Origin: an uncultured bacterium
GTDB lineage: Bacteria; Bacteroidota; Ignavibacteria; Kapaibacteriales; UBA2268
Assembly (NCBI GenBank): GCA_937875295.1
Contig: CALLXS010000054.1
Location: forward strand, 2,777-66,776
Direction of reading: 5' to 3'
DNA length: 64,000 bases
In this document: positions 1,840 to 28,796 of the stretch, piece after piece
Numbering within the stretch: the stretch's first letter is position 1
How the letters are laid out: every line of letters starts with the position of its first letter
Notes under the pieces: generated by a model
Seen by the model: the letters and a program-made list of their open reading frames with translations, nothing else
The model's database searches: none
What the model was told of the DNA's origin: nothing
Position numbers and translations under genes: made by a program

Positions 1840-4800
1840 TTATTTTTTAATGAAATTTTTAATTATGTTAAATTTATTGTTTTTAAATCTAATAAAGTAG
1901 TTTCCAGCACTAAATAGTTTTAAGTTTACTTTATAAATTGAATTAGAATTGAAATTGTTTTCAGTTAAAATTACTTTTCCTGCAGCATCGAATATTTCAA
2001 TGCTTACAATTCCTATTTCATTATCAATTTTGCAATTTATTTCATTTTCAGATGGATTAGGGAAGATATTAATTAAATATTCAAAATCAGGACTTTGCAC
2101 TAAACTTGCTTGACCGAGATTAAATGAATAAACTATTGAATATCCGAAATCAGGATTAAAAGATTTAAGTAATTTATTCTCTTTAGATACAATTTTTAAA
2201 TTGCCTGCAATCATACCATTTACAGCCCAATATTTAATGCCAACCATAGCTTCATTTGTAAGTTCCATTGTATAGCAACCATCTGGGAAATCTAAAGGTA
2301 TTTTATATGATTTTTGAGATTCGAAGTTGTCCTTTGAATATAATATATTGCCCATTATATCTTTTATTGTGAGTTTCATTTGCTCATAAGAATAATTTGG
2401 AGTAAGAAATTCTAAAGTAGAATTATTTTCAATAATATCAGGCATATTAAAATTCGCAGACATTGTATCATTTACGGCATATTCATCATTTTGATTATTT
2501 GGAGAACTAATTTTTACATCAAAAATATGATTATCATCGCCGAGCCAGAAACTAGATGAAATAATTGGAAGAGAAATTGTATCTAAAATATTTGGTTTTA
2601 AATCACCAGTCCAATTATATGTTTCTTCTACACCACCGCTAACTTTATAAATAAATTTTAGCGAAGTTAAATTAGTTTTTCCATTATTTCTAATAACTAT
2701 TACTGGATTATTACAAATTGGGTTTTTGCGAGAGAATAAGCCTTTATTATTTGGAGAGAATATTTCATATACTTCTGCATCTACAGAATGAGCTTGCTCG
2801 CCATATTCGAAGAAATGAAATGCCATTTCATAATTTCCATTTCCCATTCCTTCATTTTGAGATGGTACAGGAGTGATTTCATAATCAAAAGTATTTGAGC
2901 TTTCGACATTATTATAATTGCTTAATTCAAAATCAATATCTTTTACTACATCGCCGGGGCACCATCCTTCGCGAGAGCCAGGCCATGTGCCACCTTGAGG
3001 ATAAACTGGATTAGTAGCACAATCATATTGTTGCCAAATTGACCATACTTTTACATCGTCATTCATTGAAAGATAATGAGTATTTGCTTTCCATTCGCAG
3101 CAGTGTGGGAATGAGCCAGTATTGCTTTGGTGACCATGACCAGTTAAGCGGGTGCGTACTTTTGCAGAGAATGTATTAGGAGTTTTAGGCACTGAAATTT
3201 GATTTAATACGGTATTATTATCAAGGTTTTTATATAAATGATTACCATATCCGCCCCATAATTCTGTGAATTTTTCTACTTTACGAGGTGCTGTACCTTT
3301 GTAAAAATCGAAAGTAACATCAACTAATTCTTGCAAGTTTCCAGCAGAGAATTCTACATCACCAGTAAGTATTGGAGCATAATCTGTAACATCATATTTC
3401 CAAGTGAAACCATCGGGACCCAAATCTAAACCGATACCATAAGGAGTAATAAATCTACCAATTTCGATATTTTGGTAAATTGGTTCAGGTTCAGAATTAT
3501 ATACAAGAGTCTGATTAGTAATATTTTTTGTTCCTGCTATCATAACTGAATCGATTATATTACCATTTATATCGGTTGAATATTGATATCCGGATTTAAT
3601 TGTAGGAGTATTGCTCTCTAAAATTAATTTATCATTTTCTACTTTATATTTGCTTAGAGAATATATTTTAGGAGTAGTATAAATTTTTTCTTCTACAGAT
3701 TTAGATTCGATTTCAAAATCACCAATTACTATTTCAATAGCAGGTACGTTAGTATTAATTGGTTTAAATTTACTAAGTTCGTCACCGCTGAGCGTTTGAA
3801 TACGTGGGAAGCCAAAGTTAATACCATTGTTATTATTACCACTTACATCAGCAGTAGTATTAATATTATTTTCATTAGAATTAGGATAATTTAGAATTAA
3901 TCCATCTGTATTTGCTGGTAATACTTTATCAATATTATCAAATATTTCTTCTTCAGTAAGATTTTTATTCCATACGCGTACATTATAGACAGCACCATTG
4001 ATACAAGCTGTATTCCATTCATTAGAAGAGAGATTAAATGGTTTATTTAATTTTGGAGTTTGAGTAGGCAAAGTACCACTATAGACTCCTGATATTGATT
4101 TTCCATTAATATAAATTTTTAATTTTTCGCTATTTGATTCCTTATTTCCATTATATACAGCAGCAATATGATACCATTTTCCTTCAGTTAGAGCGCTTGA
4201 AATTTTAATATTTGAATTCATTTCATTACGGAGCATAAAGTATAGATCGCCTTTTACATCGCCTGTCTCGAAATGAATTTTGTCTCCGATACCCATAATT
4301 TTAGACCAATTAGACCATTTATTGATTTTTACAAAACCTTCGATTGTGAATTGGCTTTGATTACTTAATAATCCGGTTTTTTCTGATTGGATATAGTCAT
4401 TTTTCCCATCGAAAGTGGGGTAATGAATTAATTCATTTGAGAATATTTGCTTATCATTAATTGCGAGCATTTGCTGTTCAATAGGTTCTCCTGTCTCATT
4501 AGAAATGAATTTATCAGCAGAAATAGTTAAAACTATGCCAAGCCCATTAGATAAAGTCCTATGCTGCTTTGAGAATAGGATTTCGCTCCACTCTTCTTCA
4601 CCAATTGTGTAATCATTTTGAAATAATATTGTATTAGTACCACTAAATAGAGTCGTATCTATAAATTTATGATTAGCTATTGTGATTTTTAAATTTTTAA
4701 TAGTAACATTTTTGTTAGAAAATTTGATTCTTAATTTCCCTAAGTTCTCACCATTTAATCCTAATAATTTTAATTTTGGATTATCAAAATAATATTGCAC

Positions 4801-5319
4801 TTTAAAAGGTGTATCTTTTTTTATTGTGAGATTTTCGTTAGGGGAGTCATATAATGCTTTTATTTCATTATTACTTTCTGATTTAAGTGAATTTTGGAGC
4901 TTTGAAACAGTATAATAAATAAGTTTTTGATTTTTTATCGAGTTAAATTCATCATCAGTTAAAATAGTTAATTCATCGTCAGAGTAGCTTCCTACGCTAT
5001 ATTCTTGGTGCTTTAGCTGATATACAGTATCGCGACCGGTCTTAATATGCACTTTGATATAAGAGCTATAATCCCATTCTCCGCAATCAAATCTATCATG
5101 TGGAGTGCGTGGATCACATTTCAGAGTGTAATTCATTATTATTTTTCGGAAATCTTGATTAGCATCAGGGAATTTCCAAATACCACGCCGAGTAACTATT
5201 GAATCAAAAGTAAGAGTCTTTACTTTAATGACTGATTCGTCTGCCTTAAGAGAAGATAGGTCAGAAATTAGCATTACGATTAGAATTAATGGTAATGTAA
5301 TTAAAGTAGAAATTTTCAT
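1840..5319 (-). CDS. Large secreted multidomain protein (LamG/concanavalin-like domain) with T9SS C-terminal sorting domain
   Basis: N-terminal signal peptide MKISTLITLPLILIVMLIS. Internal LamG-like signature KWYHIAAVYNG...KIYINGK. Cys/Trp-rich module GHGHQSNTGSFPHCCEW...GWCPGD. C-terminal region of about 80 aa (FPNPSENEIN...IEIFDAAGKVI...YFIRF) typical of Por/T9SS CTDs. Confidence 0.6.
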   Translation of the reverse strand: MKISTLITLPLILIVMLISDLSSLKADESVIKVKTLTFDSIVTRRGIWKFPDANQDFRKIIMNYTLKCDPRTPHDRFDCGEWDYSSYIKVHIKTGRDTVYQLKHQEYSVGSYSDDELTILTDDEFNSIKNQKLIYYTVSKLQNSLKSESNNEIKALYDSPNENLTIKKDTPFKVQYYFDNPKLKLLGLNGENLGKLRIKFSNKNVTIKNLKITIANHKFIDTTLFSGTNTILFQNDYTIGEEEWSEILFSKQHRTLSNGLGIVLTISADKFISNETGEPIEQQMLAINDKQIFSNELIHYPTFDGKNDYIQSEKTGLLSNQSQFTIEGFVKINKWSNWSKIMGIGDKIHFETGDVKGDLYFMLRNEMNSNIKISSALTEGKWYHIAAVYNGNKESNSEKLKIYINGKSISGVYSGTLPTQTPKLNKPFNLSSNEWNTACINGAVYNVRVWNKNLTEEEIFDNIDKVLPANTDGLILNYPNSNENNINTTADVSGNNNNGINFGFPRIQTLSGDELSKFKPINTNVPAIEIVIGDFEIESKSVEEKIYTTPKIYSLSKYKVENDKLILESNTPTIKSGYQYSTDINGNIIDSVMIAGTKNITNQTLVYNSEPEPIYQNIEIGRFITPYGIGLDLGPDGFTWKYDVTDYAPILTGDVEFSAGNLQELVDVTFDFYKGTAPRKVEKFTELWGGYGNHLYKNLDNNTVLNQISVPKTPNTFSAKVRTRLTGHGHQSNTGSFPHCCEWKANTHYLSMNDDVKVWSIWQQYDCATNPVYPQGGTWPGSREGWCPGDVVKDIDFELSNYNNVESSNTFDYEITPVPSQNEGMGNGNYEMAFHFFEYGEQAHSVDAEVYEIFSPNNKGLFSRKNPICNNPVIVIRNNGKTNLTSLKFIYKVSGGVEETYNWTGDLKPNILDTISLPIISSSFWLGDDNHIFDVKISSPNNQNDEYAVNDTMSANFNMPDIIENNSTLEFLTPNYSYEQMKLTIKDIMGNILYSKDNFESQKSYKIPLDFPDGCYTMELTNEAMVGIKYWAVNGMIAGNLKIVSKENKLLKSFNPDFGYSIVYSFNLGQASLVQSPDFEYLINIFPNPSENEINCKIDNEIGIVSIEIFDAAGKVILTENNFNSNSIYKVNLKLFSAGNYFIRFKNNKFNIIKNFIKK

Positions 5320-5353: not shown

Positions 5354-6946
5354 TTAATTATTATTCAGATCGCTAGGAGCAGTTTCTTCATTTATTTTTT
5401 CAGTTGTTTCTCTCTTTAGTGGGAATTGTACTGTAAAGGTAGAACCTTTGCCTAATGCACTTGTAATTTTAATTTTGCCTTTGTGCGCTTCAGTCAGTTT
5501 CTTTACAATCCAAAGACCAAACCCAGAACTATGTTCATTTGCTGTCGGAGTAGCACTTAGCTTTACGCCACGTTGAAATGCATTGCTAATATCTTCCTGC
5601 GACAATCCTAAACCATTATCCTTTACAGATATTTCAGCATAATCTCCATCTTTTCGTATAGTAACTAGCACGCTAGCACCTTTAGGAGAATATTTAATTG
5701 CGTTAGACATTAAATTATCGATTATTTCATCTACTTTTTGCGCATCTACAGGTACTTTTTCAATTGGTTTAAAATCAGTACTGATGACAATCTGTTTTTT
5801 GTCAGCATTTATTTTGTTTCTATGAACTATATCGCTTACAATTTCTTCAATATTTTCTTCTTCAATATTTAAATGAAGCGAACTGCTCTCGAGAGATAAT
5901 ATTTTGGTTACTTCTTGAGAAAGATTTACTATTCTTGAAGTTGTAGTGACGATATCTTGTATAATTTCCTTTTGCTCGTTAGCTGACAGATCATAAGAAT
6001 TAAGCAATTCAACTAATCCTTTTACTAATCCAGCAGGGTTTTTAATATCATGAATAACCATAGCAAAAAGGTCATCTTTTTGTTTTTGCAGTTCAGTTAA
6101 TTCGGTATTAAACTTGCTCAAAGAATCAGTTTTGCTTTTTAGCTCGTTATTTTGTTTGCTAAGCTCGCTACTTCTAATATTTAAATTATCTATTTGAGCT
6201 CTTAAAGCATCTACTTCTGCTTTTAAGTCAGAGTTTTCCCTTTTAAGTAATTGTAAATCATTTTGATCTATATTAGATCCCATATAATTATCTCCGATGT
6301 ATTTATTTAAATTAATGTTTTCATTGTAGTAATTAGCGTTAGAATCTTTGTTTTTGGAATTTTTGATTATCCAAAATATTGCTAAGGTTATTAATAATAT
6401 TCCTACAGCAAGAGCAATAATATTGACAAAAGCATTAGGACCAGTGAAGACATTTGTTTCAGCGGATAATCCATTTTTTCGAATGATTTCGTCAGCTTTT
6501 GCTTTTTCATCTTTAGTAATTTCGAGCTGCTTCATTAACTCCACTTCTCTATCGCTTATTCTGAAGTTTAATTGTAGAGGGATAGCATTTATTGTGTTAT
6601 TGGGGTCGAGAGCAGAAATAGTGATTGTATAATTGTTTTCTTGCAGGTTTGAATAAATTATAGATTTAGTATTCGTAGGTTGATTATATTCATTTGTTTG
6701 ATATTTTAAATTTACAATGAACCTAAAAGGTACTTTATTTTTTAAATCTGTTTTTAAATAATAAAAAAATTCAATTTTATCTTTTGTGCTAAAAACAAAT
6801 GTAGAAGGATCTAAGCTCTTTATAGCTTTGTTGTTGACTTCTATTTTTTCTAATATCACACTTGAATTTTGAGCATTTACTTCGAAATAATTAAAAGCTA
6901 TCAAAATAGAAATAATGCTATATACAAAAATCAAATTTCTTTTCAT
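5354..6946 (-). CDS. Sensor histidine kinase with extracytoplasmic beta-rich domain and coiled-coil linker
   Basis: Signal peptide, a single TM helix (IIALAVGILLITLAIFWII), a long coiled coil, H-box VIHDIKNPAG, and a HATPase_c domain with N, G1 (DNGLGL) and G2 (GFGLWIV) boxes. Confidence 0.8.
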   Translation of the reverse strand: MKRNLIFVYSIISILIAFNYFEVNAQNSSVILEKIEVNNKAIKSLDPSTFVFSTKDKIEFFYYLKTDLKNKVPFRFIVNLKYQTNEYNQPTNTKSIIYSNLQENNYTITISALDPNNTINAIPLQLNFRISDREVELMKQLEITKDEKAKADEIIRKNGLSAETNVFTGPNAFVNIIALAVGILLITLAIFWIIKNSKNKDSNANYYNENINLNKYIGDNYMGSNIDQNDLQLLKRENSDLKAEVDALRAQIDNLNIRSSELSKQNNELKSKTDSLSKFNTELTELQKQKDDLFAMVIHDIKNPAGLVKGLVELLNSYDLSANEQKEIIQDIVTTTSRIVNLSQEVTKILSLESSSLHLNIEEENIEEIVSDIVHRNKINADKKQIVISTDFKPIEKVPVDAQKVDEIIDNLMSNAIKYSPKGASVLVTIRKDGDYAEISVKDNGLGLSQEDISNAFQRGVKLSATPTANEHSSGFGLWIVKKLTEAHKGKIKITSALGKGSTFTVQFPLKRETTEKINEETAPSDLNNN

Positions 6947-7020
6947 TAACTAACGAATCAATAAATATAACAAAGTAACAAAAATAAGTATTTTTTCGTA
7001 AATCTACAAAGTAAATATAT

Positions 7021-7058
7021 AAAAAAAACACTTTTAATATATAATTAAAAGCGTTTTT
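7021..7058. terminator. Hairpin plus A/T runs at the downstream end of the phage-derived cluster
   Basis: aaaaaaaacacttttaatatataattaaaagcgtttttttt: a 10-bp stem with one mismatch (G-U on the minus-strand RNA), flanked by T-runs in both orientations. Confidence 0.45.
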
Positions 7059-7096
7059 TTTGTGAAGCAATATTTTCATGAGAAAGTAATAGCAAA

Positions 7097-8248
7097 TCAA
7101 ATGATTTCATTTTTTTTAAAACCATAATTTGACATTAAATATTCCTTACTAAGCCTATAACCACTTTCTTTTGCAATTTTCATATCAATTTCTAATTTTT
7201 CTGATTTTAATTCTTCGTCTGCATTAATAACAAAATACGGAGCATTACCGCTGAAATTTATTTCTACATAATATTCAATTAATTGATTTAAAGTCTTTTC
7301 TACTAATTTTATATCACTCAAAATGACTTCTTTACGTATTTTGAAGTGAGTTTGAGCTGCAGCATAAGATCCTAATTCCAATTCAGTAGTTAGAGTCTGC
7401 GACAGTATTGCTTTAGAAATTTCAGAATTGCAATATTTAATTAATTCGCGATAAAGAGAATTAGAAGTGGAACGAACTGCTTCGTGAAAAGAAATATTAA
7501 TATCTGCTGGAGTAACTATTACAGAATCTTCCGACATTAAAGAAAGTGCATCAGCTAATCTGTCAGCTTCGTCGCGAGTGCTACCACGAGTATACTGTCC
7601 CATTAAAATTGGCATTCCATAACGCTCAGCAAAATGTACCCAATTTTTCACTCCTGAATTTTTAAATATTATGGGCCAATAGCATTTAGCTAATAGTGCA
7701 TTACCGTATGGGTTATCATAAGTAGCTTCAAATCTTGGGCATAATGTTTTCAGTGGATGTAAAGGCATTTCACTATCAAATTCATTTGAAGTAATGCGAT
7801 TATTTAATACTAACTCACCATCGGAATTAAAACCAAACCATTCATGGGGTCTTGGAATTATATTTTTAGGAATTAATTCATAGTTATTTGGATCGATTTC
7901 CCAAATTATCTCCATCGGTTGCCAACCGAATAACGGTGCTTCTAAAATATCTCTCATAATATTATAAATATCGAGACGCTTTAGCATTGTATTAACTTTA
8001 GATAAGACTTCATCACTTGAATCATTGCATTCTAATTTATAGCTCATACTCAATAAACCACTTTTCCTCGACTGGATACAACTCCATAAATGAGCATCAA
8101 TTTTTAATTCTCTGTATGCGGAAATGCCTTTTCCAGACTGCCGCAGCACTAAATCTGGATTAGGCAAAATATGCATTTCAGAGAAAAATGAATCATCTGC
8201 AGTAGGTTTATAAATTTCTTTCGTTAGTATATTTAATTTTGTGTTCAT
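7097..8248 (-). CDS. Mu gp29-like portal protein (DUF935 family), shorter than canonical
   Basis: The conserved block WPIIFKNSGVKNWVHFAERYGMPILMGQY ... CNSEISKAILSQTLTTELELGSYAAAQTH matches the DUF935 portal pattern as I recall it. At 383 aa it is shorter than the roughly 500-aa typical length. Confidence 0.55.
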   Translation of the reverse strand: MNTKLNILTKEIYKPTADDSFFSEMHILPNPDLVLRQSGKGISAYRELKIDAHLWSCIQSRKSGLLSMSYKLECNDSSDEVLSKVNTMLKRLDIYNIMRDILEAPLFGWQPMEIIWEIDPNNYELIPKNIIPRPHEWFGFNSDGELVLNNRITSNEFDSEMPLHPLKTLCPRFEATYDNPYGNALLAKCYWPIIFKNSGVKNWVHFAERYGMPILMGQYTRGSTRDEADRLADALSLMSEDSVIVTPADINISFHEAVRSTSNSLYRELIKYCNSEISKAILSQTLTTELELGSYAAAQTHFKIRKEVILSDIKLVEKTLNQLIEYYVEINFSGNAPYFVINADEELKSEKLEIDMKIAKESGYRLSKEYLMSNYGFKKNEII

Positions 8249-8263
8249 TATTATAGTTTTTGT

Positions 8264-8857
8264 TTATTTTGATAAATATAATTTTAAGTCTGCCATTGTA
8301 ATTTTCTTTTTTTTATTGCTGTCTTCAGAATCTTCAATAAGCAAAATATCGTTATCTGAGAGAGTTGCTTTCGAATCAAAAGAATAAAAGTCGTTATTTC
8401 CCCTTGACAATTGAGCAATGTCATTTACATTTGATAGCCCAATTTGTTCTTTAGTGATAAGATGAGGATTAGAAGTATTATTTAAGTGCGAATTAAAATA
8501 ATTAATGACTTCGGAGTTGATTTGTAAATATTCCGGGTGAGTGTGGTTTTTAGCAGAGAAATCTGATAAAAGTGTAATTAAATCATTTTGCTGATTAATA
8601 GTTCCTATAATTTCGCCCCATTTTGGAGCAATATTATTATATTCTTGATGAGTATGATGAATTAGTGAATATTGAGCAAATTTATTTGATAAATCATTTT
8701 GTTCTGATAAATTACCTGAGATATTACCCCAGTAAATTATTGTTTCTGGTAAATTTAAAGCAATATTATTTATATGATTAACCAAATCAACTTGATTATT
8801 AATCTCTCCGGTGATTTCGCCCCATTTAGTTTTGTTGGTAATTTTAATATATGGCAT
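8264..8857 (-). CDS. Phage-associated repeat protein (possible fibre or receptor-binding fragment)
   Basis: Two internal repeats: KWGEITGEINNQVDL...HTHQEY and KWGEIIGTINQQNDL...HTHPEY. N- and H-rich. Located inside the phage-derived cluster. Confidence 0.35.
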   Translation of the reverse strand: MPYIKITNKTKWGEITGEINNQVDLVNHINNIALNLPETIIYWGNISGNLSEQNDLSNKFAQYSLIHHTHQEYNNIAPKWGEIIGTINQQNDLITLLSDFSAKNHTHPEYLQINSEVINYFNSHLNNTSNPHLITKEQIGLSNVNDIAQLSRGNNDFYSFDSKATLSDNDILLIEDSEDSNKKKKITMADLKLYLSK

Positions 8858-8866
8858 ATTGGATTT

Positions 8867-9223
8867 TTATTTTTTTGTTTGAAATATTCGAGAAACTAAT
8901 ATTACTGAAATTCTACCTTGATTATTAAGAGCTTTTGAATATGATACCCGGATATAATCTGCTATAGTATCAATATCGATAATTAGAGCATCTGATTCAT
9001 TATTTATAGTATTTATTTGATATTCAAAGAATTTAGCGTATGAGATAGCATCGTTAGAAAGTTCAATACTAATATTTCCACAATTAGCAATTGCATCTTC
9101 CCAATTAATTTGAATTGACCCAAGCTTATAAATTGAATTTTTCCAGCTTTCAGAAAAAACTGGTATCCAGTCTGATTGATAATTATTGTTAGAAGAGAAA
9201 TTTATTTCTAATAGATTTTTCAT
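8867..9223 (-). CDS. Hypothetical protein in phage-derived cluster
   Basis: ORF co-oriented and tightly packed with its neighbours; no recognisable motif. Confidence 0.3.
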   Translation of the reverse strand: MKNLLEINFSSNNNYQSDWIPVFSESWKNSIYKLGSIQINWEDAIANCGNISIELSNDAISYAKFFEYQINTINNESDALIIDIDTIADYIRVSYSKALNNQGRISVILVSRIFQTKK

Positions 9224-9267
9224 AAATATTATGATTTATAAAAATGAAATAATAAATTATTAATGAT

Positions 9268-9374
9268 GAGAATGGGATAGAGAAAACCTTATGAATACAA
9301 ATTGTAAAAATTAGATGATATTACTTTTAGGAATAACAACATTATTTTAATCGGCTTTCTCTATCCGTATTCTC
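9268..9374. repeat. Long-range inverted repeat (about 18-19 bp arms, one indel) enclosing a spacer of about 70 nt
   Basis: gagaatgggatagagaaa (9268-9285) and tttctctatccgtattctc (9356-9374) are reverse complements except for a single-base indel. Confidence 0.4.
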
Positions 9375-9430
9375 TTATTCTAATTGATGAAAAGAAGTAG
9401 TGGTTAATTATAAATTAATTTGATATTAGA

Positions 9431-10018
9431 TTAGGCATTATTAGTTCTAAATCCGATTAAACCTCGAATTGCTAAATTAGAAAGTGGATGATAAATATTT
9501 CTTTTCTTTATAAATACTCCCTCTACTTTTCGTCCATTAATAATGCTATTTGTGTTAAATGCAATTGTAGTAATATTTCCTTTTTCGCCGACTTTAATTA
9601 CTCTTTCTATATGCCCTCGGTAGCTAGATTTCCTTCTCCATACAATTAAATCATTAATATTTGCCTTGTATGGCTTTTTAATTCCATTAATTCGTGCAAA
9701 TCTATAAATGTCATTAGCTACCATAGTTTTGGGAATTGGAATAGAATCTTGAGGTAAGCTAAGTCTTTGTGAAGCGACAAAGAAAGTCCAATAAATGCCA
9801 GCAGCACAATAGGGCGTACCCGGAGCAGCTGAGAAAATTTTAAGATATTTATAAATATCACCTATATTTCTCCCATTTTCGAGAGTACCATTTTGAGAAA
9901 TTGCTATTTCTCCAGATAATTGCAATAAGTCGTAATTGCAATATAATTCATATTTGGAATATGGGAAAGCAGAAATGGAACTAATTAATATCAATATTAC
10001 TACTAAATTAAATCGCAT
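9431..10018 (-). CDS. Secreted CHAP/NlpC-P60 superfamily cell-wall hydrolase (endolysin-like)
   Basis: Signal peptide. Candidate catalytic Cys in PGTPYCAAGIYW and His in YRGHIERVIKV, with spacing typical of CHAP domains. Sits next to a small 3-TM protein. Confidence 0.5.
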   Translation of the reverse strand: MRFNLVVILILISSISAFPYSKYELYCNYDLLQLSGEIAISQNGTLENGRNIGDIYKYLKIFSAAPGTPYCAAGIYWTFFVASQRLSLPQDSIPIPKTMVANDIYRFARINGIKKPYKANINDLIVWRRKSSYRGHIERVIKVGEKGNITTIAFNTNSIINGRKVEGVFIKKRNIYHPLSNLAIRGLIGFRTNNA

Positions 10019-10096
10019 TTTATAATGTCTCCTTTAAAAAGTGAATGAATTAATTAATTTTAAATAGTTAGCTTGTTTCTTATTTATATTATTGAA

Positions 10097-10381
10097 TTAA
10101 GCAAATTGAGCTAAATATACTCCAAGAATTGTAAGACCTGTGAGAATATGTACGCTCAAGAAAATTAAACCCAAATTGAGTGGTGAAGATGTTTGTGTAA
10201 AATCAATTTTAGTATAAATATTTTGTGCGATGCTTGATAGCGCTATTGCTATACATTCAGCAATAATTAAAAGCAGAATAGTTCGTATTTCTGCAAAACT
10301 TGGCACCAAGAGAAAGGCAGCAACTAATCCGCCGAATATCCAAACGAAGTGCCGTTTAAAGAATTGAATGTAGGTTTCCAT
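10097..10381 (-). CDS. Small three-helix membrane protein, holin-like by context
   Basis: 94 aa with three predicted TM helices, immediately upstream of the CHAP hydrolase gene. Functional assignment is inference only. Confidence 0.3.
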   Translation of the reverse strand: METYIQFFKRHFVWIFGGLVAAFLLVPSFAEIRTILLLIIAECIAIALSSIAQNIYTKIDFTQTSSPLNLGLIFLSVHILTGLTILGVYLAQFA

Positions 10382-10402
10382 AATTTTATTTATTTAATTG
10401 TT

Positions 10403-10816
10403 TTATAATTCGTTAATTAAGGACTGATTTTTCCTTACCAAAATAAATGGAGGTTGATATTCCCGCCAATTTAATTGGATTTCTCCATTCTGGAGTTGTT
10501 TTAATAATTTATAAGTATCGATTTTTTTCAAGACAATTGCATTAGGCACAGACATTTTAGTATAAGCAGCTTCGTATAGATGTATTATTGTTAAATCTTT
10601 AGCTATTAATTCGATAAGAGGTGGAATGTTATCAAAATCAAAATGTAAGCTATATCTACCTGTTAAGTATGAATCGATAATAGTCTCAGCAAATTTCTCT
10701 GCTTCTTTGATTCTTTCAATATCAAGTTGTCCATCGCCATTATCAGTAAGCCTTAGAGCTTCTTTTGTACCCAATGCTTCAATTATTTTCTCTGGGGAAT
10801 AATAATAAAATATCAT
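10403..10816 (-). CDS. Mu gp36-like protein (DUF1320)
   Basis: Pattern LTDNGDGQLDIERIKEAEKFAETIIDSYLTGRYSL...LIAKDLTIIHLYE fits DUF1320. Start placed at the internal MIFYYY methionine, because the longer ORF overlaps the upstream gene. Confidence 0.55.
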   Translation of the reverse strand: MIFYYYSPEKIIEALGTKEALRLTDNGDGQLDIERIKEAEKFAETIIDSYLTGRYSLHFDFDNIPPLIELIAKDLTIIHLYEAAYTKMSVPNAIVLKKIDTYKLLKQLQNGEIQLNWREYQPPFILVRKNQSLINEL

Positions 10817-10853
10817 ATTTAGTTGAATTTTGAAATTATAATAATAGTTTATT

Positions 10854-11201
10854 CTATACAACTAATTTTATTTTAATAATAGAACCAGCCGTACCGGGGC
10901 TAAGTGCAGTAGCAACCCAATCAGAAGTTTCTGTTTTTTTACATGCTTTCCCTCCTGTATTCGATACGCTTACTTTTTCCCCTATATTAATAGCATCTAA
11001 TATTTCTACCAATACTACTCCATAGCTAATAATTGACATTGTGTCTCCCATATTCCATGAGGTTTCGCTCACACCTACTGGATTTTCACTTGCACCGCAA
11101 AGTGATCCTTTCGCATTTACGAAGCGAAAAGGTAATATTTCAGAATCTGCTTTAATTGTAATTAATTGTAGAGGGATTGCAGTTTGTTGTTTGGTTATCA
11201 T
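10854..11201 (-). CDS. DUF2190-like small phage head protein
   Basis: 115 aa, Gly-rich beta pattern (GDTMSIISYGVVLV...GEKVSVSNTGGKA...GTAGSIIKIKL) resembling DUF2190. Lies between the capsid and gp36 genes. Confidence 0.45.
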   Translation of the reverse strand: MITKQQTAIPLQLITIKADSEILPFRFVNAKGSLCGASENPVGVSETSWNMGDTMSIISYGVVLVEILDAINIGEKVSVSNTGGKACKKTETSDWVATALSPGTAGSIIKIKLVV

Positions 11202-11231
11202 ATTTCTTTCTTTCTTTTTTATGATTATTAA

Positions 11232-12170
11232 TTATGATACTACATTTGTAATAAGATGCGCAGCTTCTGGCATTGTCACTTTCCAACAAAAATTATCTGT
11301 ACATCTTATAATTTTGATTTTGCCACCATTTTCATAATATGTATCTACTTCTGGCATATTTTCAAGTTGGAATATATATCCTAATTGTGGATTATACTTA
11401 TTTTCTTTTTCATTGCCGACGCTCCTATAAGTCATTAAAATATTATTCTCCCAAATATTTCTTAAATTTATATTGTCTTGAGAATAAACTGCAGTGCTTA
11501 CAATTATATTTTCTATCTGTAGATAATCCTTTATCATATTTAAATTTGGTTTGATTAATTTATGATTATATATTAGCTCGGTGATAGTTTCTGAATTAAT
11601 AATTGCTTCTAATACAGAATTATTTAATATAACTGTATTTGGGATCCGACCAGTTTTTAATCTAATGCTTTCTTTTGTTGAATTAATAAGTTCGATAATA
11701 TTAATAGTCGAAGTTGGATTGTTAATAGAATCAGAATCGGAGATTTGAGTAAGGTTATTTAGATTAAAGTTATCTGGATTTTGTAAATAATTACAAATTT
11801 CTATTTCTCTATTTAAGGAGAGAGAGTCCCAAAGCTGTTTAGTAATTATTTGTTCATATTTGCTATAACTATTTGATTGACTGCTTTCTAAGTAATCTAT
11901 AGCCATTTCTAAATCTTGCTCTTGAGTTTCGTAAGGTGTGAGAATGAAGTCAGTAGCAGGTATCCTATTTGAATCAGCACGAATAGCGCGGTCGGTACTT
12001 CTTGCGACAAAAGCATCTTTACCAAAAATTGGAATGTTTCCTTTTGATTTCTTTACTTTTACAGTGTGAAATAATTCTTTAGATAGAAATAAATCATTTT
12101 TGTGCAACTGCACTAATGTAGTAAGCACAGGGTCAATACTACGCAAATTGTCTAATCTTTTTGCAGACAT
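11232..12170 (-). CDS. Putative major capsid protein (Mu gpT-like position and size)
   Basis: 312 aa ORF between the protease/scaffold gene and the DUF2190/gp36 genes. Assigned by synteny and size; no motif recognised with certainty. Confidence 0.4.
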   Translation of the reverse strand: MSAKRLDNLRSIDPVLTTLVQLHKNDLFLSKELFHTVKVKKSKGNIPIFGKDAFVARSTDRAIRADSNRIPATDFILTPYETQEQDLEMAIDYLESSQSNSYSKYEQIITKQLWDSLSLNREIEICNYLQNPDNFNLNNLTQISDSDSINNPTSTINIIELINSTKESIRLKTGRIPNTVILNNSVLEAIINSETITELIYNHKLIKPNLNMIKDYLQIENIIVSTAVYSQDNINLRNIWENNILMTYRSVGNEKENKYNPQLGYIFQLENMPEVDTYYENGGKIKIIRCTDNFCWKVTMPEAAHLITNVVS

Positions 12171-12218
12171 ATTTGATTATCTCCTTTATTTAAAAATGAA
12201 ATGATATAATAATAAAAT

Positions 12219-13142
12219 TTATTTGTCGATTAATTCTAAAGCTTCTTCGTATGATAATTCAGGGCGAGAAATCATAAGATCAATTGTATTATTGTGTTTT
12301 ATGAGTTTTTCATTATCGAAATGAGAAAAATTTGAATCAATTTTCGATATTGTAGAAATATTTTGTTTTGGTAATAATTGTTGCGAAATAGTTTTATTTT
12401 GAGAATTATTAATATTGCTTAAAATTGGTAATTTTACAATTTTTTCAGCAAAATTTTTAATTAGAGATAAATTATAATTTTCAGAATTATTTTGCGAATC
12501 ATATTCAAATGCTATATTCATTAATTCTGGTAAGCATTCATCTATAATTTGATTTAATGCGTTATTTGATGAAATATGAGTTATTTTAGAGCAGTAGTTT
12601 TTGTAATTCAATAATCTTTCAGCTTTTTGATATTTTTCAATATCTTTTTGATAACACGATATTTGTTCTTTCATTTTGCGATACTCTTCTGAATAATCAT
12701 TTTGTATTTTATAGTCATTTTCTTTTATCTCCAATTTATTAGCTAAATTATCATAATAATCAACAAATTCTGCAGGTTCTAATCCATTTACCGCAGGCGA
12801 GGCTGCTCCCAAAAAACCTTTATGCCTAAGCAATAGATCGGGATATAGGGAAATAGAGACTTTCTTAAATTTCCCTTGATTTAGTTCTTCTGAAAATTCT
12901 GGAGATATATCTCTTATTCCTGCTATTAATTTATCTGCGATTACTTTTAAGTACGCTACCCAGCCGTAAGCTGGAGAATTATCTTGAGGATGTCCCTTTA
13001 CAATTGGAGCTATAGCAGAATTATCAATTGCTAATTTTGAATTGTAATTATTAGCGATTTTCATCAAATCTTCTTTTGTGTATGTCTTTTCATTACCATT
13101 AGAGTCAATGAAAGTACCGATTCGAAATACTTCAATTTCCAT
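12219..13142 (-). CDS. Mu I-like prohead protease/scaffold protein
   Basis: N-terminal pattern IGTF..NG...TKEDL...NNYN...AIDNSAIAPIVKGH...PAYGWVAYLKVIADKL...KKVSISLYP matches the Mu-like I protease family. The C-terminal half is coiled-coil and low-complexity, as expected for a scaffold. Confidence 0.55.
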   Translation of the reverse strand: MEIEVFRIGTFIDSNGNEKTYTKEDLMKIANNYNSKLAIDNSAIAPIVKGHPQDNSPAYGWVAYLKVIADKLIAGIRDISPEFSEELNQGKFKKVSISLYPDLLLRHKGFLGAASPAVNGLEPAEFVDYYDNLANKLEIKENDYKIQNDYSEEYRKMKEQISCYQKDIEKYQKAERLLNYKNYCSKITHISSNNALNQIIDECLPELMNIAFEYDSQNNSENYNLSLIKNFAEKIVKLPILSNINNSQNKTISQQLLPKQNISTISKIDSNFSHFDNEKLIKHNNTIDLMISRPELSYEEALELIDK

Positions 13143-13400
13143 TATGTTTTTCCTTTATATGAGAAATAAAAATTATTTATTTTTTCTGAAAGCGAAATTA
13201 ATATCTTGTCTCGCTTGCGAAAACAAAAAGATTTTGAATTATTATTACATTCATTTTATAATTATTTTATTAGTACTAAATGACACAATCATTTTGCAGT
13301 TTAAAGTATAACAAAAAGAAATCAAATACGTTTACAATAAATTAGAAAAGAGAAATTGTAACTCTAAGACAAGCATAATCAATATTATTAGGTAATTACA

Positions 13401-14735
13401 TTGAATAAGAATAAAGTCCATTTTTTGAATTTTTTAATATTTCTTTGCATTATTGTAAGCTATAATTTAATTTCAAAGCCCACAACAAAAACCGAAAAAG
13501 CTCTCGAAAAAGCTTTTGAACATATCCAAAAGAATGAATTAGAAAAAGCTCACAAAGTATATTCTGATTTAATAAAGCAAAATCCAAAATCTCGAGATGC
13601 ACTTATTTCAAGAGCTGAATTTTATATTATGCTCGAGAAATATAATGAAGCAATTAGAGATTATAATCAATTATTGACTTTTGATACTCTAAATTCAGTA
13701 GCTTATTATAGAAGAGCTTACGCCAAAAATAAAGGTGATAGTATAGCTGTTGCAGTAAACGATTACAAAAAAGCACTTTCAATGGATAGCTCAAATATTG
13801 ATTTAATATTTGATTGGGCTCTATACAGTTTGACCTATGATAATATTCAAATCGCAATTGATAATTTAGAATTAGCATTAATTAAAGATTCTTCTCGTAC
13901 TGAAGGTTATGGCTATTTAGGGTATGCTTATTATAGAATGAATGAGTACGACAAATCATTAGAAAATTATAACAAAGCAATTTCTTATGATAAAAAGAAT
14001 ACTCAATTATACTTTAATCAAGCAAATACTTTATTGAAATTGGATAAATTCGACGAAGCAATTAATTCTTATACAAAAGCTATTGAATTAGACCCTAATT
14101 TTGAAGATGCATATGAAAATCGATCATTTGCATATTATCGCATAGGAAATCTTGATAAAGCTGAAGCTGATAAATTGACTATTAAAGAAGTAAAAGAAAG
14201 GAAAATGGCCTCGTATGATGATAATATTGATTTATCAAAAAGCAAAGTATTTACTGACTCTACAAATCAATTAAAAATTTATATGCCTGAAGAATTTCAT
14301 CAGACATTTCTTTCGGATAGTGAGATAATTTCAATGGGGGTCACTCGAGAAAAAATCCCTGATATTTTCCAAGGATTCATTGTAGGAGTAATAGTTGAAA
14401 AAATTTTAGATCCATCAAAAACATTAAAAATTTCTGAACCAAGTGATTTAATAGGATATTTAAAAGCTTATGCAATAAGCACTGGAGAAAATGCCTTTTA
14501 TTCTAATATTATTACAGAGAAACAAAAACCACTCGGAAGGTATGGTCAAGGTGCATTTTATCAATCTATTTTGCAACAAATCAAATATTCAAGAGATTCT
14601 GAAGAAATCACACAATATATAGTAGGATATTTAAAATATAATACTTTGGTTATTCATAGATTTATTTACCCATCAGTTTTATCAGCTAAGTATGATAAAA
14701 TGGTGGAAATTGCAATTGATAGATTTGAATTCTAA
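13401..14735 (+). CDS. TPR-repeat protein with N-terminal membrane anchor/signal and an uncharacterised C-terminal domain
   Basis: Multiple 34-residue TPR-like repeats (A..YYRRAYA, AL..D..N.D) after a hydrophobic N-terminus. The C-terminal roughly 170 aa match nothing I recognise. Confidence 0.6.
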   Translation: MNKNKVHFLNFLIFLCIIVSYNLISKPTTKTEKALEKAFEHIQKNELEKAHKVYSDLIKQNPKSRDALISRAEFYIMLEKYNEAIRDYNQLLTFDTLNSVAYYRRAYAKNKGDSIAVAVNDYKKALSMDSSNIDLIFDWALYSLTYDNIQIAIDNLELALIKDSSRTEGYGYLGYAYYRMNEYDKSLENYNKAISYDKKNTQLYFNQANTLLKLDKFDEAINSYTKAIELDPNFEDAYENRSFAYYRIGNLDKAEADKLTIKEVKERKMASYDDNIDLSKSKVFTDSTNQLKIYMPEEFHQTFLSDSEIISMGVTREKIPDIFQGFIVGVIVEKILDPSKTLKISEPSDLIGYLKAYAISTGENAFYSNIITEKQKPLGRYGQGAFYQSILQQIKYSRDSEEITQYIVGYLKYNTLVIHRFIYPSVLSAKYDKMVEIAIDRFEF

Positions 14736-16725: not shown

Positions 16726-17610
16726 ATGAAAAAAAATACTAAAGGCATAATCCTCGCAGGAGGTAGCGGAACACGCTTATATCCTCTTACTGCTGTAGCA
16801 AGCAAGCAGTTGCAAGTAGTATATGATAAACCAATGATCTATTATCCCATTGCATTGCTTATGCTCTCCGGAATAAAAGAAATATTAATAATTACTACAC
16901 CTTATGATATGCCAAATTTCAAAAAATTGCTGAAAGATGGTTCGCAATGGGGAATTAAACTAGAATATAAAATTCAGGAAGAACCAAAAGGTATTGCCCA
17001 AGCATTTATTATTGGTAAAGATTTCATTGAAAATCATCAAGTTTGCTTAATATTAGGTGATAATCTTTTTTATGGAAAATTGGATTTCCTTAGAAATGGT
17101 ATAGCAAACAACAATGGTGGTACTATTTTTGGATACCCTGTAAATAACCCAAAAGATTATGGAGTAGTAGAATTTGATTCAAAAGGAAATGTAATAAGTA
17201 TAGAAGAAAAGCCGGAATCGCCAAAATCTAACTATGCAATACCGGGAGCATATATTTTTGATGAAAATGCATGCGAAATTGCTCAAAAAATAAAACCGGG
17301 CAAAAGAGGTGAATTAGAAATTACCGATATGCAAAGAGAATACTTAAAAATGAATAAACTAAATGTAGTTACTATCGGCAGAGGAATAGCTTGGCTCGAT
17401 ACTGGCACTCCGGAAACTATGCTCGAAGCCTCTACTTTTATACATTCTATTGAAAAAAGACAAGGTAGGAAAATTGCATGCTTAGAAGAAATTGCTTTGA
17501 ATATGGGATATTTGAATGAAAATGAATATCAAAACACATTAAATAATTTACCAAATTGTCTATATAAAGATTATTGCAATATGGTATTAAATGAATATAC
17601 TAAAGCCTAA
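16726..17610 (+). CDS. rfbA: Glucose-1-phosphate thymidylyltransferase
   Basis: GIILAGGSGTRLYPLT motif, with a KQL..VYDKPMIYYP region characteristic of RmlA. Confidence 0.85.
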   Translation: MKKNTKGIILAGGSGTRLYPLTAVASKQLQVVYDKPMIYYPIALLMLSGIKEILIITTPYDMPNFKKLLKDGSQWGIKLEYKIQEEPKGIAQAFIIGKDFIENHQVCLILGDNLFYGKLDFLRNGIANNNGGTIFGYPVNNPKDYGVVEFDSKGNVISIEEKPESPKSNYAIPGAYIFDENACEIAQKIKPGKRGELEITDMQREYLKMNKLNVVTIGRGIAWLDTGTPETMLEASTFIHSIEKRQGRKIACLEEIALNMGYLNENEYQNTLNNLPNCLYKDYCNMVLNEYTKA

Positions 17611-18238
17611 AATGAAAAAATTATTCTATATAATATTTTTTTATTTATTACTTACTCCTTTTATATCCTCAAGTATTATTGAATCAGAAAATATTATTAT
17701 TGATTCTAATATGACTTTCGAAGAATCAATTAAAGGTACTAAAGCTCCAAAATCAATTATTGATAATCTGATGCTGCTCGATGTAATGTATTATTCTACA
17801 GATAAAAAACTACATAAAGGACAAATTGTAATTTCAAAGTCTGTAGAAAAAGATATTTCAAGTATTTTTGAAATTGCTATTAAAGAGAAATTTATTATTG
17901 AGAAGTGCATTCCGATTGTAAAGTATAATTGGAGTGATAATAAATCAATGGCTAACAATAATACTTCATCATTTAATTATCGCAAGGTAAGTGGATCTAA
18001 AAATCTTTCTAAACATTCCTATGGTTTAGCAATTGATATTAATCCAAAATATAATCCCGTAGTTTATAAGAATGGGAGAATTTCCCCAAAAGGTGCTACA
18101 TACGATATAAATAAAAATGGGACTTTATCAAAGAAATCTGCTATAATAGACGCATTCAAAAAGCTAGGATGGAAATGGGGAGGAGAATTTAGATCCTTTA
18201 AGGATTATCATCATTTCCAAAAAATATCCAATAAATAA
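17591..18238 (+). CDS. M15-family (LAS) zinc peptidase, VanY/D-Ala-D-Ala carboxypeptidase-like
   Basis: SxHxxGxAxD-type motif HSYGLAIDINP and a C-terminal DYHHFQ His motif. Signal peptide. The true start may be the internal Met at 17612. Confidence 0.6.
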   Translation: MNILKPKMKKLFYIIFFYLLLTPFISSSIIESENIIIDSNMTFEESIKGTKAPKSIIDNLMLLDVMYYSTDKKLHKGQIVISKSVEKDISSIFEIAIKEKFIIEKCIPIVKYNWSDNKSMANNNTSSFNYRKVSGSKNLSKHSYGLAIDINPKYNPVVYKNGRISPKGATYDINKNGTLSKKSAIIDAFKKLGWKWGGEFRSFKDYHHFQKISNK

Positions 18239-27229: not shown

Positions 27230-28348
27230 CTAAAAATCATTTGGCAAAACAGTATTTTCGAGACTTCGTGATGAAAAAATATATCTATCACCACACATAA
27301 ATCCTAAGTCACCCCAATCGACATTATTTAATTTATCCTTGAGTAATACTAAATCAGCATCTTGGTTGCGTGGAAATATTCCTAATATAGAGCCATCATA
27401 ATTATTGCATTCGTTAAGGAAAAATGGATTTTTTGTTCGTGTCTTGCAATTCACATAAATTCTTTTTTGATTACTTTTATATAATAGTCTGCCCCACATC
27501 CACCAATTTGATTCATTGAATTTTTTTATTTTCCGATTTATCAATTGATCTTTGTATTGCAAAAGGTGTTTATGAGGATAATTATAAATCATCTTTTGTA
27601 GTTTACCAGTTTTTACGGTGCTTGATGTAATGAAATCTAAATTACCAAATTCATCAGATTCAAAAGCATAATCTAATCCACTTACAGCTCCAACTTTAAC
27701 GAAAAAGTAATCGCTAAAACTCTTGTTATATGTTTTTTCAGAAACAATTAGTTGTCCATTTATATTAAGGAAATGTTCATTATTATTAGTTTTTCGCGAA
27801 AAATTCCCTTTTTCAAATCTCCAGACAATACAATTTGGAGAAAATTTATTGAATATTTTTTTATCTCCAAAATCAATTAAATCAGTAATAGTACCTCTTT
27901 CATAAATATAATCATTAAGATCAAGTGAAGAAGTAGCTTTCATAAAATCTCTAGGTGTGATGAAAATGAGTTCTCCTCCATCATTTAGGTGATCTATACA
28001 TTTTTCTATAAAAAAAAGATATAAATTTGACCTTTCATCAAACATAACTGAATTAAATTTACTAATTGTACTATGTGGAATATCTTGATATCTAACAAAA
28101 GGCGGATTACCTATAATTGTATCAAATTTTTCTGTAATTGGATAATCAAAAAAATCCATATTTAAAGCATAGTCTGGACAAATTGTAGCATCAATTTCAA
28201 TTGCTACTGCATCTGGTAGTAAATTAGAAAACCGCCCATTCCCACAAGAAGGTTCTAAAATTCTGCCATTATTTCGTCTGAAAGATAGCATCAGATGAAC
28301 AATTTCAGTAGGAGTGAAGATTTGCCCAAAATTAATTATTTTATCCAA
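27230..28348 (-). CDS. N6-adenine DNA methyltransferase (gamma-class, TaqI/Eco57I-like), apparently orphan
   Basis: FTPTEIV..., the AdoMet motif EPSCGNGRF, and the catalytic motif IGNPPFVRY (NPPF). The C-terminal half is a likely target-recognition domain. No endonuclease ORF on either side. Confidence 0.7.
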   Translation of the reverse strand: MDKIINFGQIFTPTEIVHLMLSFRRNNGRILEPSCGNGRFSNLLPDAVAIEIDATICPDYALNMDFFDYPITEKFDTIIGNPPFVRYQDIPHSTISKFNSVMFDERSNLYLFFIEKCIDHLNDGGELIFITPRDFMKATSSLDLNDYIYERGTITDLIDFGDKKIFNKFSPNCIVWRFEKGNFSRKTNNNEHFLNINGQLIVSEKTYNKSFSDYFFVKVGAVSGLDYAFESDEFGNLDFITSSTVKTGKLQKMIYNYPHKHLLQYKDQLINRKIKKFNESNWWMWGRLLYKSNQKRIYVNCKTRTKNPFFLNECNNYDGSILGIFPRNQDADLVLLKDKLNNVDWGDLGFMCGDRYIFSSRSLENTVLPNDF

Positions 28349-28541
28349 CTTTATACAGAATTACTTAATTTTTAAAAAAATTTTAAAAAAAAAAAATTTA
28401 AGAAAAGTTAAATTAAATTCCAAATTATTTTTAGTAAAGTTTAAGAAATAATATCTTTTTTAATAATTATTTGGTATTTGACTAAAAAATCATTAATTTT
28501 GTAGTCCTATAAAATAAAAATAATTTTTCGGAGATAGAAAA

Positions 28542-28721: not shown

Positions 28722-28796
28722 TTCTCTTTAGTATAATATTAATCCTTATATTTCGGATAAATATTTCTTTTTATAAAAGAAAAATTTAAATAAATT

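Follow-up and report, generated by a model that had tools for sequence, protein, structure and literature searches.

A conserved Mu-like head-and-lysis cassette of Ignavibacteria and Kapaibacteria: candidate main locus of a gene transfer agent-like system with an orphan terminase

Introduction

Only three groups of gene transfer agent (GTA) have an established genetic basis of particle production, two of them alphaproteobacterial and one spirochaetal, according to PMC9662315. In the BhGTA, or VSH-1, of Brachyspira hyodysenteriae (Brachygtaviriformidae), a conserved single-copy terL lies outside the structural cluster that it is inferred to serve (PMC9662315). A further candidate, the FpGTA of Faecalibacterium in the Firmicutes, has a 10.5-kb main operon and packages 8.4–8.9 kb of host DNA (PMC12946183). 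How often phages have been domesticated for the exchange of DNA is an open question. Here we describe a testable candidate from a different lineage. It is a cassette of nine phage-type head and lysis genes in a 64,000-nucleotide stretch of DNA (‘the window’) from an uncultured bacterium of the Kapaibacteriales (Bacteroidota, Ignavibacteria; assembly GCA_937875295.1, contig CALLXS010000054.1, positions 2,777 to 66,776 of the forward strand).

We are confident, from the comparison of many genomes, that the block is domesticated and under selection. On balance we also think it probable that it forms the principal locus of a GTA-like (viriform) system that is spread over several loci, is inherited vertically and makes DNA-packaging particles. 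Full-text searches of the literature on GTAs, portals and prophages of Ignavibacteria and Kapabacteria, and on DUF935-based GTAs, returned no description of such a system.

The cassette and its head genes

What does the cassette encode? Nine tightly packed open reading frames (ORFs) run on the minus strand from 13142 to 7097, about 6 kb. All lie where an earlier note on this DNA had placed them. From 13142 downwards they are:

12219–13142, minus strand: head maturation protease (N-terminal ~140 residues) with a scaffold-like C-terminal part, 307 residues
11232–12170, minus strand: major capsid protein, 312 residues
10854–11201, minus strand: capsid cement or decoration protein, 115 residues
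10403–10861, minus strand: Mu gp36-type head–tail adaptor
10097–10381, minus strand: holin-like small membrane protein, 94 residues
9431–10018, minus strand: predicted exported CHAP-type peptidoglycan hydrolase, endolysin-like, 195 residues
8867–9223, minus strand: conserved protein, possibly a beta-sandwich, 118 residues
8264–8857, minus strand: tail-fibre anchor protein, 197 residues
7097–8248, minus strand: short Mu-type portal protein, 383 residues

Profile searches of the kind that the note had proposed matched the protease, capsid, cement, gp36, CHAP and portal families, the cement and CHAP proteins below the Pfam cut-offs. The first product is a Mu I-like protease/scaffold, as the note had it: residues 2–140 match phrog_976 (6.7e-40), while the remainder is of low complexity and scaffold-like, and the protein has no Pfam match. 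Its gene stands first in 39 of the 47 cassette loci whose sequence extends 7 kb or more upstream of the portal. These and all other comparative data come from metagenome-assembled genomes (MAGs) and metagenome contigs, with ORFs called mechanically and taxon names taken from record titles, some of them placeholders. The ratio of non-synonymous to synonymous substitution (dN/dS) of the protease gene is 0.05–0.18. That of the next gene is 0.02–0.10; its product, described earlier only as capsid-sized, is the major capsid protein (phrog_1005, 3.9e-60 over its full length; Protein Data Bank (PDB) entry 3bjq, ‘phage-related protein’, 1.4e-16). The proposed DUF2190 protein matches PF09956 (Phage_cement_2, the DUF2190 family) at 6.3e-5, 23.7 bits and just under the cut-off of 24, PF22758 at 1.3e-4 and phrog_673 at 1.5e-16; its length is constant at 113–115 residues across loci. 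The gp36 (DUF1320) protein matches PF07030 (Phage_Mu_Gp36) at 4.4e-15 and the head–tail adaptors of phrog_195 at 3.5e-18. Its ORF has 152 codons from a TTG, and gene callers take an ATG that gives 137 residues (10403–10816), as in L001–L004 (cassette and related loci are numbered with the prefix L).

The last gene encodes the DUF935 portal that the note had recognized. Its product matches PF06074 (Portal_Mu) at 5.8e-89 across the whole model (2–336 of 336), and the portals of JBD30 (PDB 8rka) and Mu (9khx) at 1e-26 to 1e-27 by sequence. The portals or necks of JBD30 and Mu are also the top fold matches of its predicted structure, a model of moderate quality (mean predicted local distance difference test score, pLDDT, 63). 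At 383 residues it is shorter than the solved portals of Mu (512 residues) and JBD30 (526 residues) and than those of its phage relatives (median 487 residues). The shortfall, put earlier at about 120 residues, lies mainly at the C-terminus, where some 100–120 residues are missing; its alignment with the Mu and JBD30 portals takes in all of their ordered core. The gene order is rearranged with respect to Mu, again as claimed, the portal gene standing at the 3′ end and not before the protease and capsid genes, and it is unlike that of the closest phage relatives too.

No portal or capsid family other than the Mu-type PF06074 and PF07030 was reported by Pfam at E ≤ 0.01. Membership of the RcGTA-like agents (Rhodogtaviriformidae) was considered and rejected, since the portal and adaptor match Mu-type families only. 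An encapsulin nanocompartment was rejected as well, as a portal and a gp36 adaptor are present and under purifying selection.

Conservation, selection and descent

How widespread is this arrangement? The portal has hundreds of close relatives; among the 120 matches listed they are mostly about 370–390 residues long, with a minority of 321–357, and those that are named come from MAGs of Ignavibacteria, Kapabacteria or ‘Bacteroidetes/Chlorobi’. When each GTDB species was represented by one genome, 108 species-level genomes were found to encode a close portal relative, at 41–76% identity. The 80 loci that were fetched come from 80 different assemblies, with one copy in each. Iterative searches with the nine window proteins recovered the order protease, capsid, cement, gp36, transmembrane (TM) protein, CHAP, 118-residue protein, variable slot and portal almost everywhere. 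All seven core genes follow that order in 38 of the 47 loci, where the cassette measures 5.0–10.1 kb (median 6.5 kb); across related genomes it is conserved without detected tail-tube genes, which is what the comparison of synteny suggested in the note has yielded.

Every gene family of the cassette is under purifying selection. In eight species pairs the dN/dS values of all nine families fall between 0.02 and 0.36, with one value at 0.50; comparisons of L010 with the window and with L011 give no informative ratio, as synonymous sites are saturated. Four independent assemblies of the window species have the nine ORFs intact. The downstream flank (a histidine kinase, a 1159-residue protein sorted by the type IX secretion system (T9SS), and thioredoxin) is common to the window species, L010 (portal identity to the window 76%) and L011 (74%). 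Five further species groups share flanks, and distant loci lie in unrelated neighbourhoods. In a neighbour-joining tree, built without bootstrap, the 78 cassette portals (median 377 residues) form one clade, which includes only one of 48 IMG/VR portals (median 487 residues).

Many MAG records that carry the cassette are titled ‘uncultured Hyphomicrobiales’ (L010, L013, L017–L019 and many others); these titles look like placeholders. T9SS-sorted proteins, typical of the Fibrobacteres–Chlorobi–Bacteroidetes (FCB) group, occur nearby where flanks were annotated (e.g. L143, L227).

The surroundings of the window copy are those of a chromosome. On the portal side stands a histidine kinase gene (5354–6946, minus strand), followed by the genes for the T9SS-sorted 1159-residue protein, thioredoxin and GcvP; on the protease side a tetratricopeptide repeat (TPR) protein gene (13401–14735) is followed by sugar nucleotidyltransferase and flagellar genes. 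That host genes frame the block had been read correctly, as had its host-like composition: its GC content is 0.27–0.30, and that of the window about 0.30. Large ORFs sampled across the remaining 57 kb are all of host or housekeeping type. No tail, integrase or transposase gene was found among the cassette flanks and these sampled large ORFs, many small and medium ORFs lying outside the scan; to that extent the local absence of such genes stands. A terminase or tail gene contiguous with the block was looked for just outside it and not found, and deposited phages show no similarity to the block at the DNA level.

Could the block nonetheless be what is left of a decaying prophage, or the end of a complete one? 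It consists of phage genes only, has no obvious cellular function and is missing many phage modules. Against this, more than 100 species have a cassette built in the same way, the dN/dS of each gene is far below 1, and in the window the block has host genes on both sides, host-type sampled ORFs in the remaining 57 kb and a host-like GC content. We take this possibility to be extremely improbable. Of the two options in the earlier note, the remnant is effectively ruled out by conservation, by purifying selection on nine genes and by shared chromosomal sites; the other, a domesticated capsid-plus-lysis cassette, is supported.

In one subclade (L037, L070–75, L080, L088) the cassette is split. 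The block from gp36 to the portal adjoins nrfHA or acyl-CoA synthetase genes, and the protease gene lies elsewhere, in L088 on the opposite strand at a distance of 5.6 kb. L055 has its capsid block directly next to the portal. The persistence of a split cassette speaks against a mobile element, since selection would allow it only for a cellular multi-gene function.

This observation bears on a further alternative, namely a capsid-forming phage satellite, or another mobile element, for which a helper phage would provide terminase, tail and replication functions. The cassette does possess its own capsid, portal and adaptor without terminase or tail, as capsid-forming satellites partly do, and distant loci do lie in different neighbourhoods. 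Yet the annotated flanking genes include no integrase, excisionase, primase/replicase or repressor; each genome has a single copy, at a site common to related species; a cassette in two distant pieces is not survivable for a mobile element; and the terminase described below is chromosomal and orphan in nine contexts, not helper-borne. We judge a satellite very unlikely. A mini-Mu or similar transposable element was also rejected: there is no transposase and no sign of mobility, and the site is fixed among relatives, although no search was aimed at end repeats.

Phage relatives and the lysis genes

How does the cassette differ from the phages to which it is related? IMG/VR contigs whose portals are at most 41% identical to that of the window are real phages. 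They carry a block of ParB, TerS-like, large terminase (TerL), portal (~485 residues), MuF and gpS genes, divergent from or upstream of a head block that runs protease, capsid, (cement), gp36, two small neck proteins, TM protein, CHAP, a bitopic protein of ~148 residues, and fibre and large structural genes. They also carry DnaB-primase and ParB, and not transposase. Among 52 IMG/VR loci of this phage type, 34 have TerL, 39 MuF and 28 gpS; within 10 kb of 85 cassette loci we found one TerL homologue and neither MuF nor gpS. Integrase, transposase and replication genes are likewise missing from the Pfam-annotated flanks of L005–L009. By comparison with these phages, the portal gene of the cassette has moved to the 3′ end and its product has lost the C-terminal ~100–120 residues. 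A Mu-like transposable prophage was considered and rejected, there being no MuA/MuB, repressor or contractile tail in the window and flanks examined and the portal gene standing at the 3′ end.

Compact cassettes of the same order, with portals of 342–369 residues, are filed as viral contigs in IMG/VR (L113, L116, L127). The portal of L113 falls inside the cassette clade of the tree and that of L116 outside it; the three may extend the family to other lineages.

The note had read a three-TM holin-like protein and a secreted CHAP hydrolase as a lysis pair. The 94-residue membrane protein has three to four hydrophobic segments by hydropathy and no family match in Pfam or PHROG profile searches. 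Its family is present in 46 of the 47 loci, and also stands just before the CHAP gene in the phage relatives; from position and hydropathy, it is probably holin-like. The 195-residue protein matches CHAP at 2.9e-4, below the cut-off. This match is backed by its relatives, since CHAP is the only family matched by 26 of 36 members (best 1.5e-7) and Cys71, His136 and Glu138 are invariant. The protein has an N-terminal hydrophobic signal (residues 3–21), and dN/dS is 0.09–0.50. A single-sequence structure model was too poor for use (pLDDT 37), and PDB searches with the CHAP, 118-residue and 148-residue family profiles gave nothing significant.

The TM–CHAP pair appears to be ancestral, because it is present in the same arrangement in the phage relatives. 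Together with the 148-residue protein it resembles a lysis trio of holin, endolysin and spanin-like proteins. In IMG/VR relatives with Mu-like heads (L097, L098, L109/L144, L134) the holin-like, CHAP and bitopic genes stand together between the neck and fibre genes.

An orphan terminase

Is there a terminase? The note had recorded none, and locally this is true; related cassette-bearing genomes, however, keep a conserved orphan TerL elsewhere. In L038 it lies 8.4 kb from the cassette, beside M16 peptidase genes. Used as a query, the L038 protein recovered a family of ~470–500 residues and 46–55% identity in the same taxa as the cassette. TerL shares a contig with the cassette in L038, in CAYVTD010000017.1 (~43 kb away), in CAZDXB010000002.1 (~83 kb) and in OW818654.1 (~110 kb); in the MAG HW421 the two are on different contigs. 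For contigs of 135,831, 94,297, 30,792, 19,859 and 10,317 bp, equality of length suggests that they too may carry both. In nine of nine contexts it is a lone gene amid housekeeping genes (secG/queA, dnaK/hsp20, argS, nadABC, queC, ftsAZ and others). Its Walker A (PPRHGKSE) and Walker B (IIDDP) motifs and its nuclease aspartates are invariant. L226 has a TerS-like gene immediately upstream of TerL, and another adjoins the cassette in L018. A metagenome scan with the TerL profile gave, among the matches listed, mostly real phage terminases at 33–44% identity, and added few orphan loci.

HNH proteins assist some terminases. In the single case of L227, an HNH endonuclease gene (4305–4898) lies 1.1 kb upstream of the orphan TerL.

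Promoter and terminator

Is the cassette expressed as a unit, and together with TerL? Two signals frame it:

13193–13239, minus strand: predicted cassette promoter, with a proximal element ATTCAAAATCTTTTTGTTT (13239–13221), a 20-nt spacer and a −7 box TAATTTCG (13200–13193)
7020–7061, minus strand: intrinsic-terminator-like hairpin 3′ of the portal gene, with an 18-bp AT-rich stem, a 5-nt loop and a U-run

The promoter, with a −7 box of Bacteroidota type, lies 58 nt upstream of the first start codon; no other intergenic site in the window has the proximal element together with a −7 box. The architecture TTTTnAAAYGnTTTnnTTG, ~21 nt, TAnnTTYG is found upstream of the cassette in most of the 47 loci. 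It is usually preceded by phased TTTYRAAA repeats of ~11 bp, in two to five copies with helical periodicity (loci L005–L089, e.g. L026, L023, L038 and L044; window 13193–13300, minus strand), which resemble regulator sites, either a binding array or curved DNA.

A position weight matrix (PWM) of the proximal element was applied to the upstream regions of the nine orphan TerL genes. Scores were 24.0, 17.6, 16.3 and 15.3 bits at four and 11.5 and 10.7 at two, against a 95th percentile of 10.4, a 99th percentile of 14.5 and a maximum of 15.4 bits in 533 control upstream regions from the same loci. In L038 the cassette and TerL promoters have an exact 15-mer in common, matched in none of 200 shuffles; long words shared by the two promoters were not significant in L018/L143 or L053/L142. 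A common regulon of cassette and TerL is suggested because the element scores above controls at four of nine TerL genes and because of the 15-mer in L038.

The terminator that the note had reported beside the block was recovered by folding (−16 kcal/mol, z = −8, none of 200 shuffles as good), though a consensus scan based on GC-rich stems, which missed this AT-rich hairpin, gave no terminator at the block ends.

The fibre anchor and the variable slot

Two products had been left as unknowns in the note. For the 118-residue protein this stands: it has no assigned role, with only weak hints to jelly-roll or discoidin folds, though its family is present in 45 of the 47 loci (dN/dS 0.05–0.19). The 197-residue protein, on the other hand, is a tail-fibre anchor. 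It gives short matches to tail fibre and tail collar PHROGs, and contains three WGxIxGxIxxQxDL repeats and a NPHxxTKxQxGLxNV...LIEDS...KKK module. It aligns with the first ~120 residues of a family of fibres of 147–703 residues encoded at the same position in 29 of the 47 loci, and the profile of this N-terminal part matches cassette loci only. The window anchor is without the variable C-terminal part that most of its relatives carry.

The slot between the 118-residue gene and the portal gene is hypervariable between lineages. It holds fibres of 147–703 residues with a conserved N-terminus of ~120 residues and a variable C-terminus, and sometimes a Laminin_G_3 lectin (~220 residues) or a protein resembling carbohydrate-binding modules (~310 residues). 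It may also hold a family of ~97 residues homologous to a phage neck-region protein (23 loci) and the bitopic family of ~148 residues (58 loci), which has a TM segment at each terminus. Receptor-binding modules usually have variable ends on a conserved anchor, as these fibres do. The earlier suggestion of a tail-less particle therefore holds in part: no tail genes were found, but the particle is probably not bare, because the anchor of most relatives has a long variable C-terminal part beside lectin-like genes.

Is the window copy itself still functional? It is without the ~97-residue neck-like and ~148-residue spanin-like genes that most relatives keep. Its nearest relatives have gone further: L010 (8785–9923) is also without the 118-residue gene and the fibre, and L011 (985–1784) without the holin-like gene as well, while capsid, adaptor, CHAP and portal genes are intact in both. 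With its anchor-only fibre, the absence of these two genes and the further losses in L010 and L011, the window lineage appears to carry a reduced version of the cassette.

The family might be functional and the window copy, with L010 and L011, recently inactivated, only accessory genes having been lost so far. The missing genes, the anchor-only fibre, the losses in L010 and L011 and a low-scoring promoter element in the window are all consistent with such a copy on its way out. Opposed to it are the integrity of the nine ORFs in four independent assemblies; purifying selection on anchor-only fibres elsewhere (L085/L089, dN/dS 0.15); and, between L010 and L011, an excess of synonymous over non-synonymous change in all four genes tested, the synonymous sites being saturated. 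We regard recent inactivation as quite unlikely, and the window copy as a reduced variant.

Neighbouring genes

A Peptidase_M15_4 gene (17591–18238, plus strand), encoding a VanY-like D-Ala-D-Ala carboxypeptidase, lies 4.4 kb from the cassette. It adjoins sugar nucleotidyltransferase genes in L002 as well, and its fold is also used by some phage endolysins. An Eco57I-type N6 DNA methylase gene (27230–28348, minus strand) adjoins the stretch of lowest GC content in the window (22%, 28001–29000); the region may be a small acquired restriction-modification island. The histidine kinase gene stands directly downstream of the portal gene in the window and in its nearest relatives, L010 and L011. Histidine kinase genes, alone or with response-regulator genes, also neighbour the cassette in several unrelated lineages (L033, L036, L038, L015, L031, L037). 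They could be there by chance in genomes rich in histidine kinases, or could reflect a regulatory link.

Discussion

Structural genes derived from Caudoviricetes are resident among host genes. Their transmission is vertical, as seen in one copy per assembly in 80 species, in shared flanks and in the portal clade. No genes for self-propagation were found in the annotated flanks of L005–L009 or among the scanned ORFs of the window. On every point that can be tested by sequence alone the cassette fits the criteria for a GTA or viriform (PMC9662315), namely residence, vertical descent and lack of autonomous propagation. Its parts are of Mu type, and it appears to belong to no described GTA family.

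How might such a system work? We propose the following sequence of events. A conserved host-type promoter with an unusual upstream element would switch on the operon. Protease/scaffold, capsid, cement and portal proteins would build a small procapsid of Mu type. The stand-alone chromosomal TerL known from related genomes, in some of them with a TerS-like protein, would fill the procapsid with DNA. The gp36 adaptor would then close the portal and the fibre anchor attach, bearing in relatives variable receptor-binding ends and lectin-like partners. Finally the holin-like protein and the exported CHAP hydrolase would lyse the producer and release the particles.

More tentatively, and at somewhat less than an even chance, we suggest that this is an independently exapted and undescribed GTA lineage, and that no other is known from the Ignavibacteria/Kapaibacteria branch of the FCB group. 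The lineage would derive from a Mu-like head, pared down to a locus of ~6 kb with a scattered terL (and sometimes terS), would make fibre-bearing capsids with no tube under a dedicated promoter regulon, and would predate the split of the two classes.

Several observations weigh against a DNA-packaging system of this kind. Genes for a tail tube, sheath, tape-measure, baseplate or nozzle did not turn up within or beside any of the cassettes. This leaves a gap for the exit of DNA from the particle, which a minimal plug or needle of gp36 adaptor, 97-residue protein and fibre anchor might fill, unless the tail is encoded at yet another locus. By tblastn there is no terminase in the 64-kb window. 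The TerS-like gene was found by jackhmmer in only two genome loci, and the L018 protein matched only itself in a large protein database. The identities of portal and TerL do not co-vary across ten genomes (r = −0.35), the spread being star-like with all pairs about equally distant, so that the link between TerL and cassette rests on co-occurrence and on the promoter. The promoter element is itself weak in the window (11.7 bits by PWM), and weak or absent at five of the nine TerL genes. The window lineage is losing accessory genes, of which L010 and L011 have lost more. All data come from MAGs, with taxonomy from record titles only. Split ORFs occur in a few loci (portal in L038, 10001–11155, L016 and L087; protease in L020 and L027; CHAP in L033 and L078; capsid in L116), and are either sequencing errors of MAGs or local pseudogenization.

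Might the particle, then, have some other job? A domesticated particle released by lysis could serve as a decoy or sink for the DNA or terminase of invading phages, in the manner of abortive infection, as a container for protein or nucleic acid, or as a bacteriocin-like or adhesion particle, with TerL unrelated or serving that role. Conservation and purifying selection show that there is a function and not which; the cassette has its own lysis genes; and the lack of a detected tail or ejection apparatus, and of co-variation between portal and TerL, suits such a role. But a portal, a head–tail adaptor and a TerL with intact ATPase and nuclease motifs make up a DNA-packaging set, and TerL shares the cassette promoter element in four of nine genomes. 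Furthermore, the PADLOC defence models gave no match among the nine proteins, and the hypervariable fibre and lectin genes point to the binding of other cells. We therefore consider another job unlikely, though the chance is a real one, and prefer a GTA-like system.

If the particles do transfer DNA, a head, portal, adaptor, fibre and lysis pair with an unlinked terminase would suffice for it, and the promoter motif could be used to find the rest of the regulon. If they do not, the cassette would be a conserved capsid-plus-lysis system with a new function. Its parts list is unusually minimal and its phylogenetic depth demonstrates long-term selection; the lineage is environmentally widespread, in digesters, sediments, hot springs and groundwater. 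Either way, annotators should stop flagging such loci, several of which are in IMG/VR, as incomplete prophages or viral contigs.

Comparison with known systems

To which of the known systems is the cassette closest? Capsid-forming satellites, of the type of the capsid-forming phage-inducible chromosomal islands (cf-PICI), also carry capsid, portal and connector genes of their own in the absence of a full phage. Satellites carry integrase, regulation and replication modules and are mobile. The annotated flanks of the cassette contain no such module, and it is fixed and vertically inherited.

With the heads of Mu and JBD30 the cassette shares the PF06074 portal, the PF07030 adaptor, a gpI-type protease/scaffold and a gpT-type capsid protein. 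It differs from Mu in having no transposase, repressor, MuF, gpG/gpS or contractile tail, and in a portal some 120 residues shorter and encoded at the 3′ end.

The main cluster of RcGTA encodes TerL and a siphovirus tail, both of which are missing from the main locus of the cassette. The ancestors are also unrelated, since the cassette has PF06074 and PF07030 and a fold that matches Mu and JBD30. Like the RcGTA type of the Alphaproteobacteria, the cassette is vertically inherited, with separate lysis and fibre or spike functions and long-term purifying selection, and is probably multi-locus and host-controlled (that type as described in PMC5026251 and PMC9662315). FpGTA, compared here by description only, resembles it in pairing a compact phage-derived operon with a second small structural/lysis operon, in being podovirus-like with no long tail, and in its genus-wide occurrence (PMC12946183).

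In its logic the cassette appears closest to BhGTA. Both have a chromosomal head-and-lysis cluster that is conserved in the host clade and rearranged between species, with terL outside it, in the case of the cassette in related genomes (PMC9662315 for BhGTA). The same source gives BhGTA a cluster of 16.3 kb, tail genes, a 65-nm tail and a transfer of DNA that was shown experimentally. The cassette, known from its genes alone, is ~6 kb long, has no tail genes, and spans two classes where BhGTA spans one genus. With its Mu-type portal and adaptor, it would have arrived at a similar arrangement from a Mu-like head.

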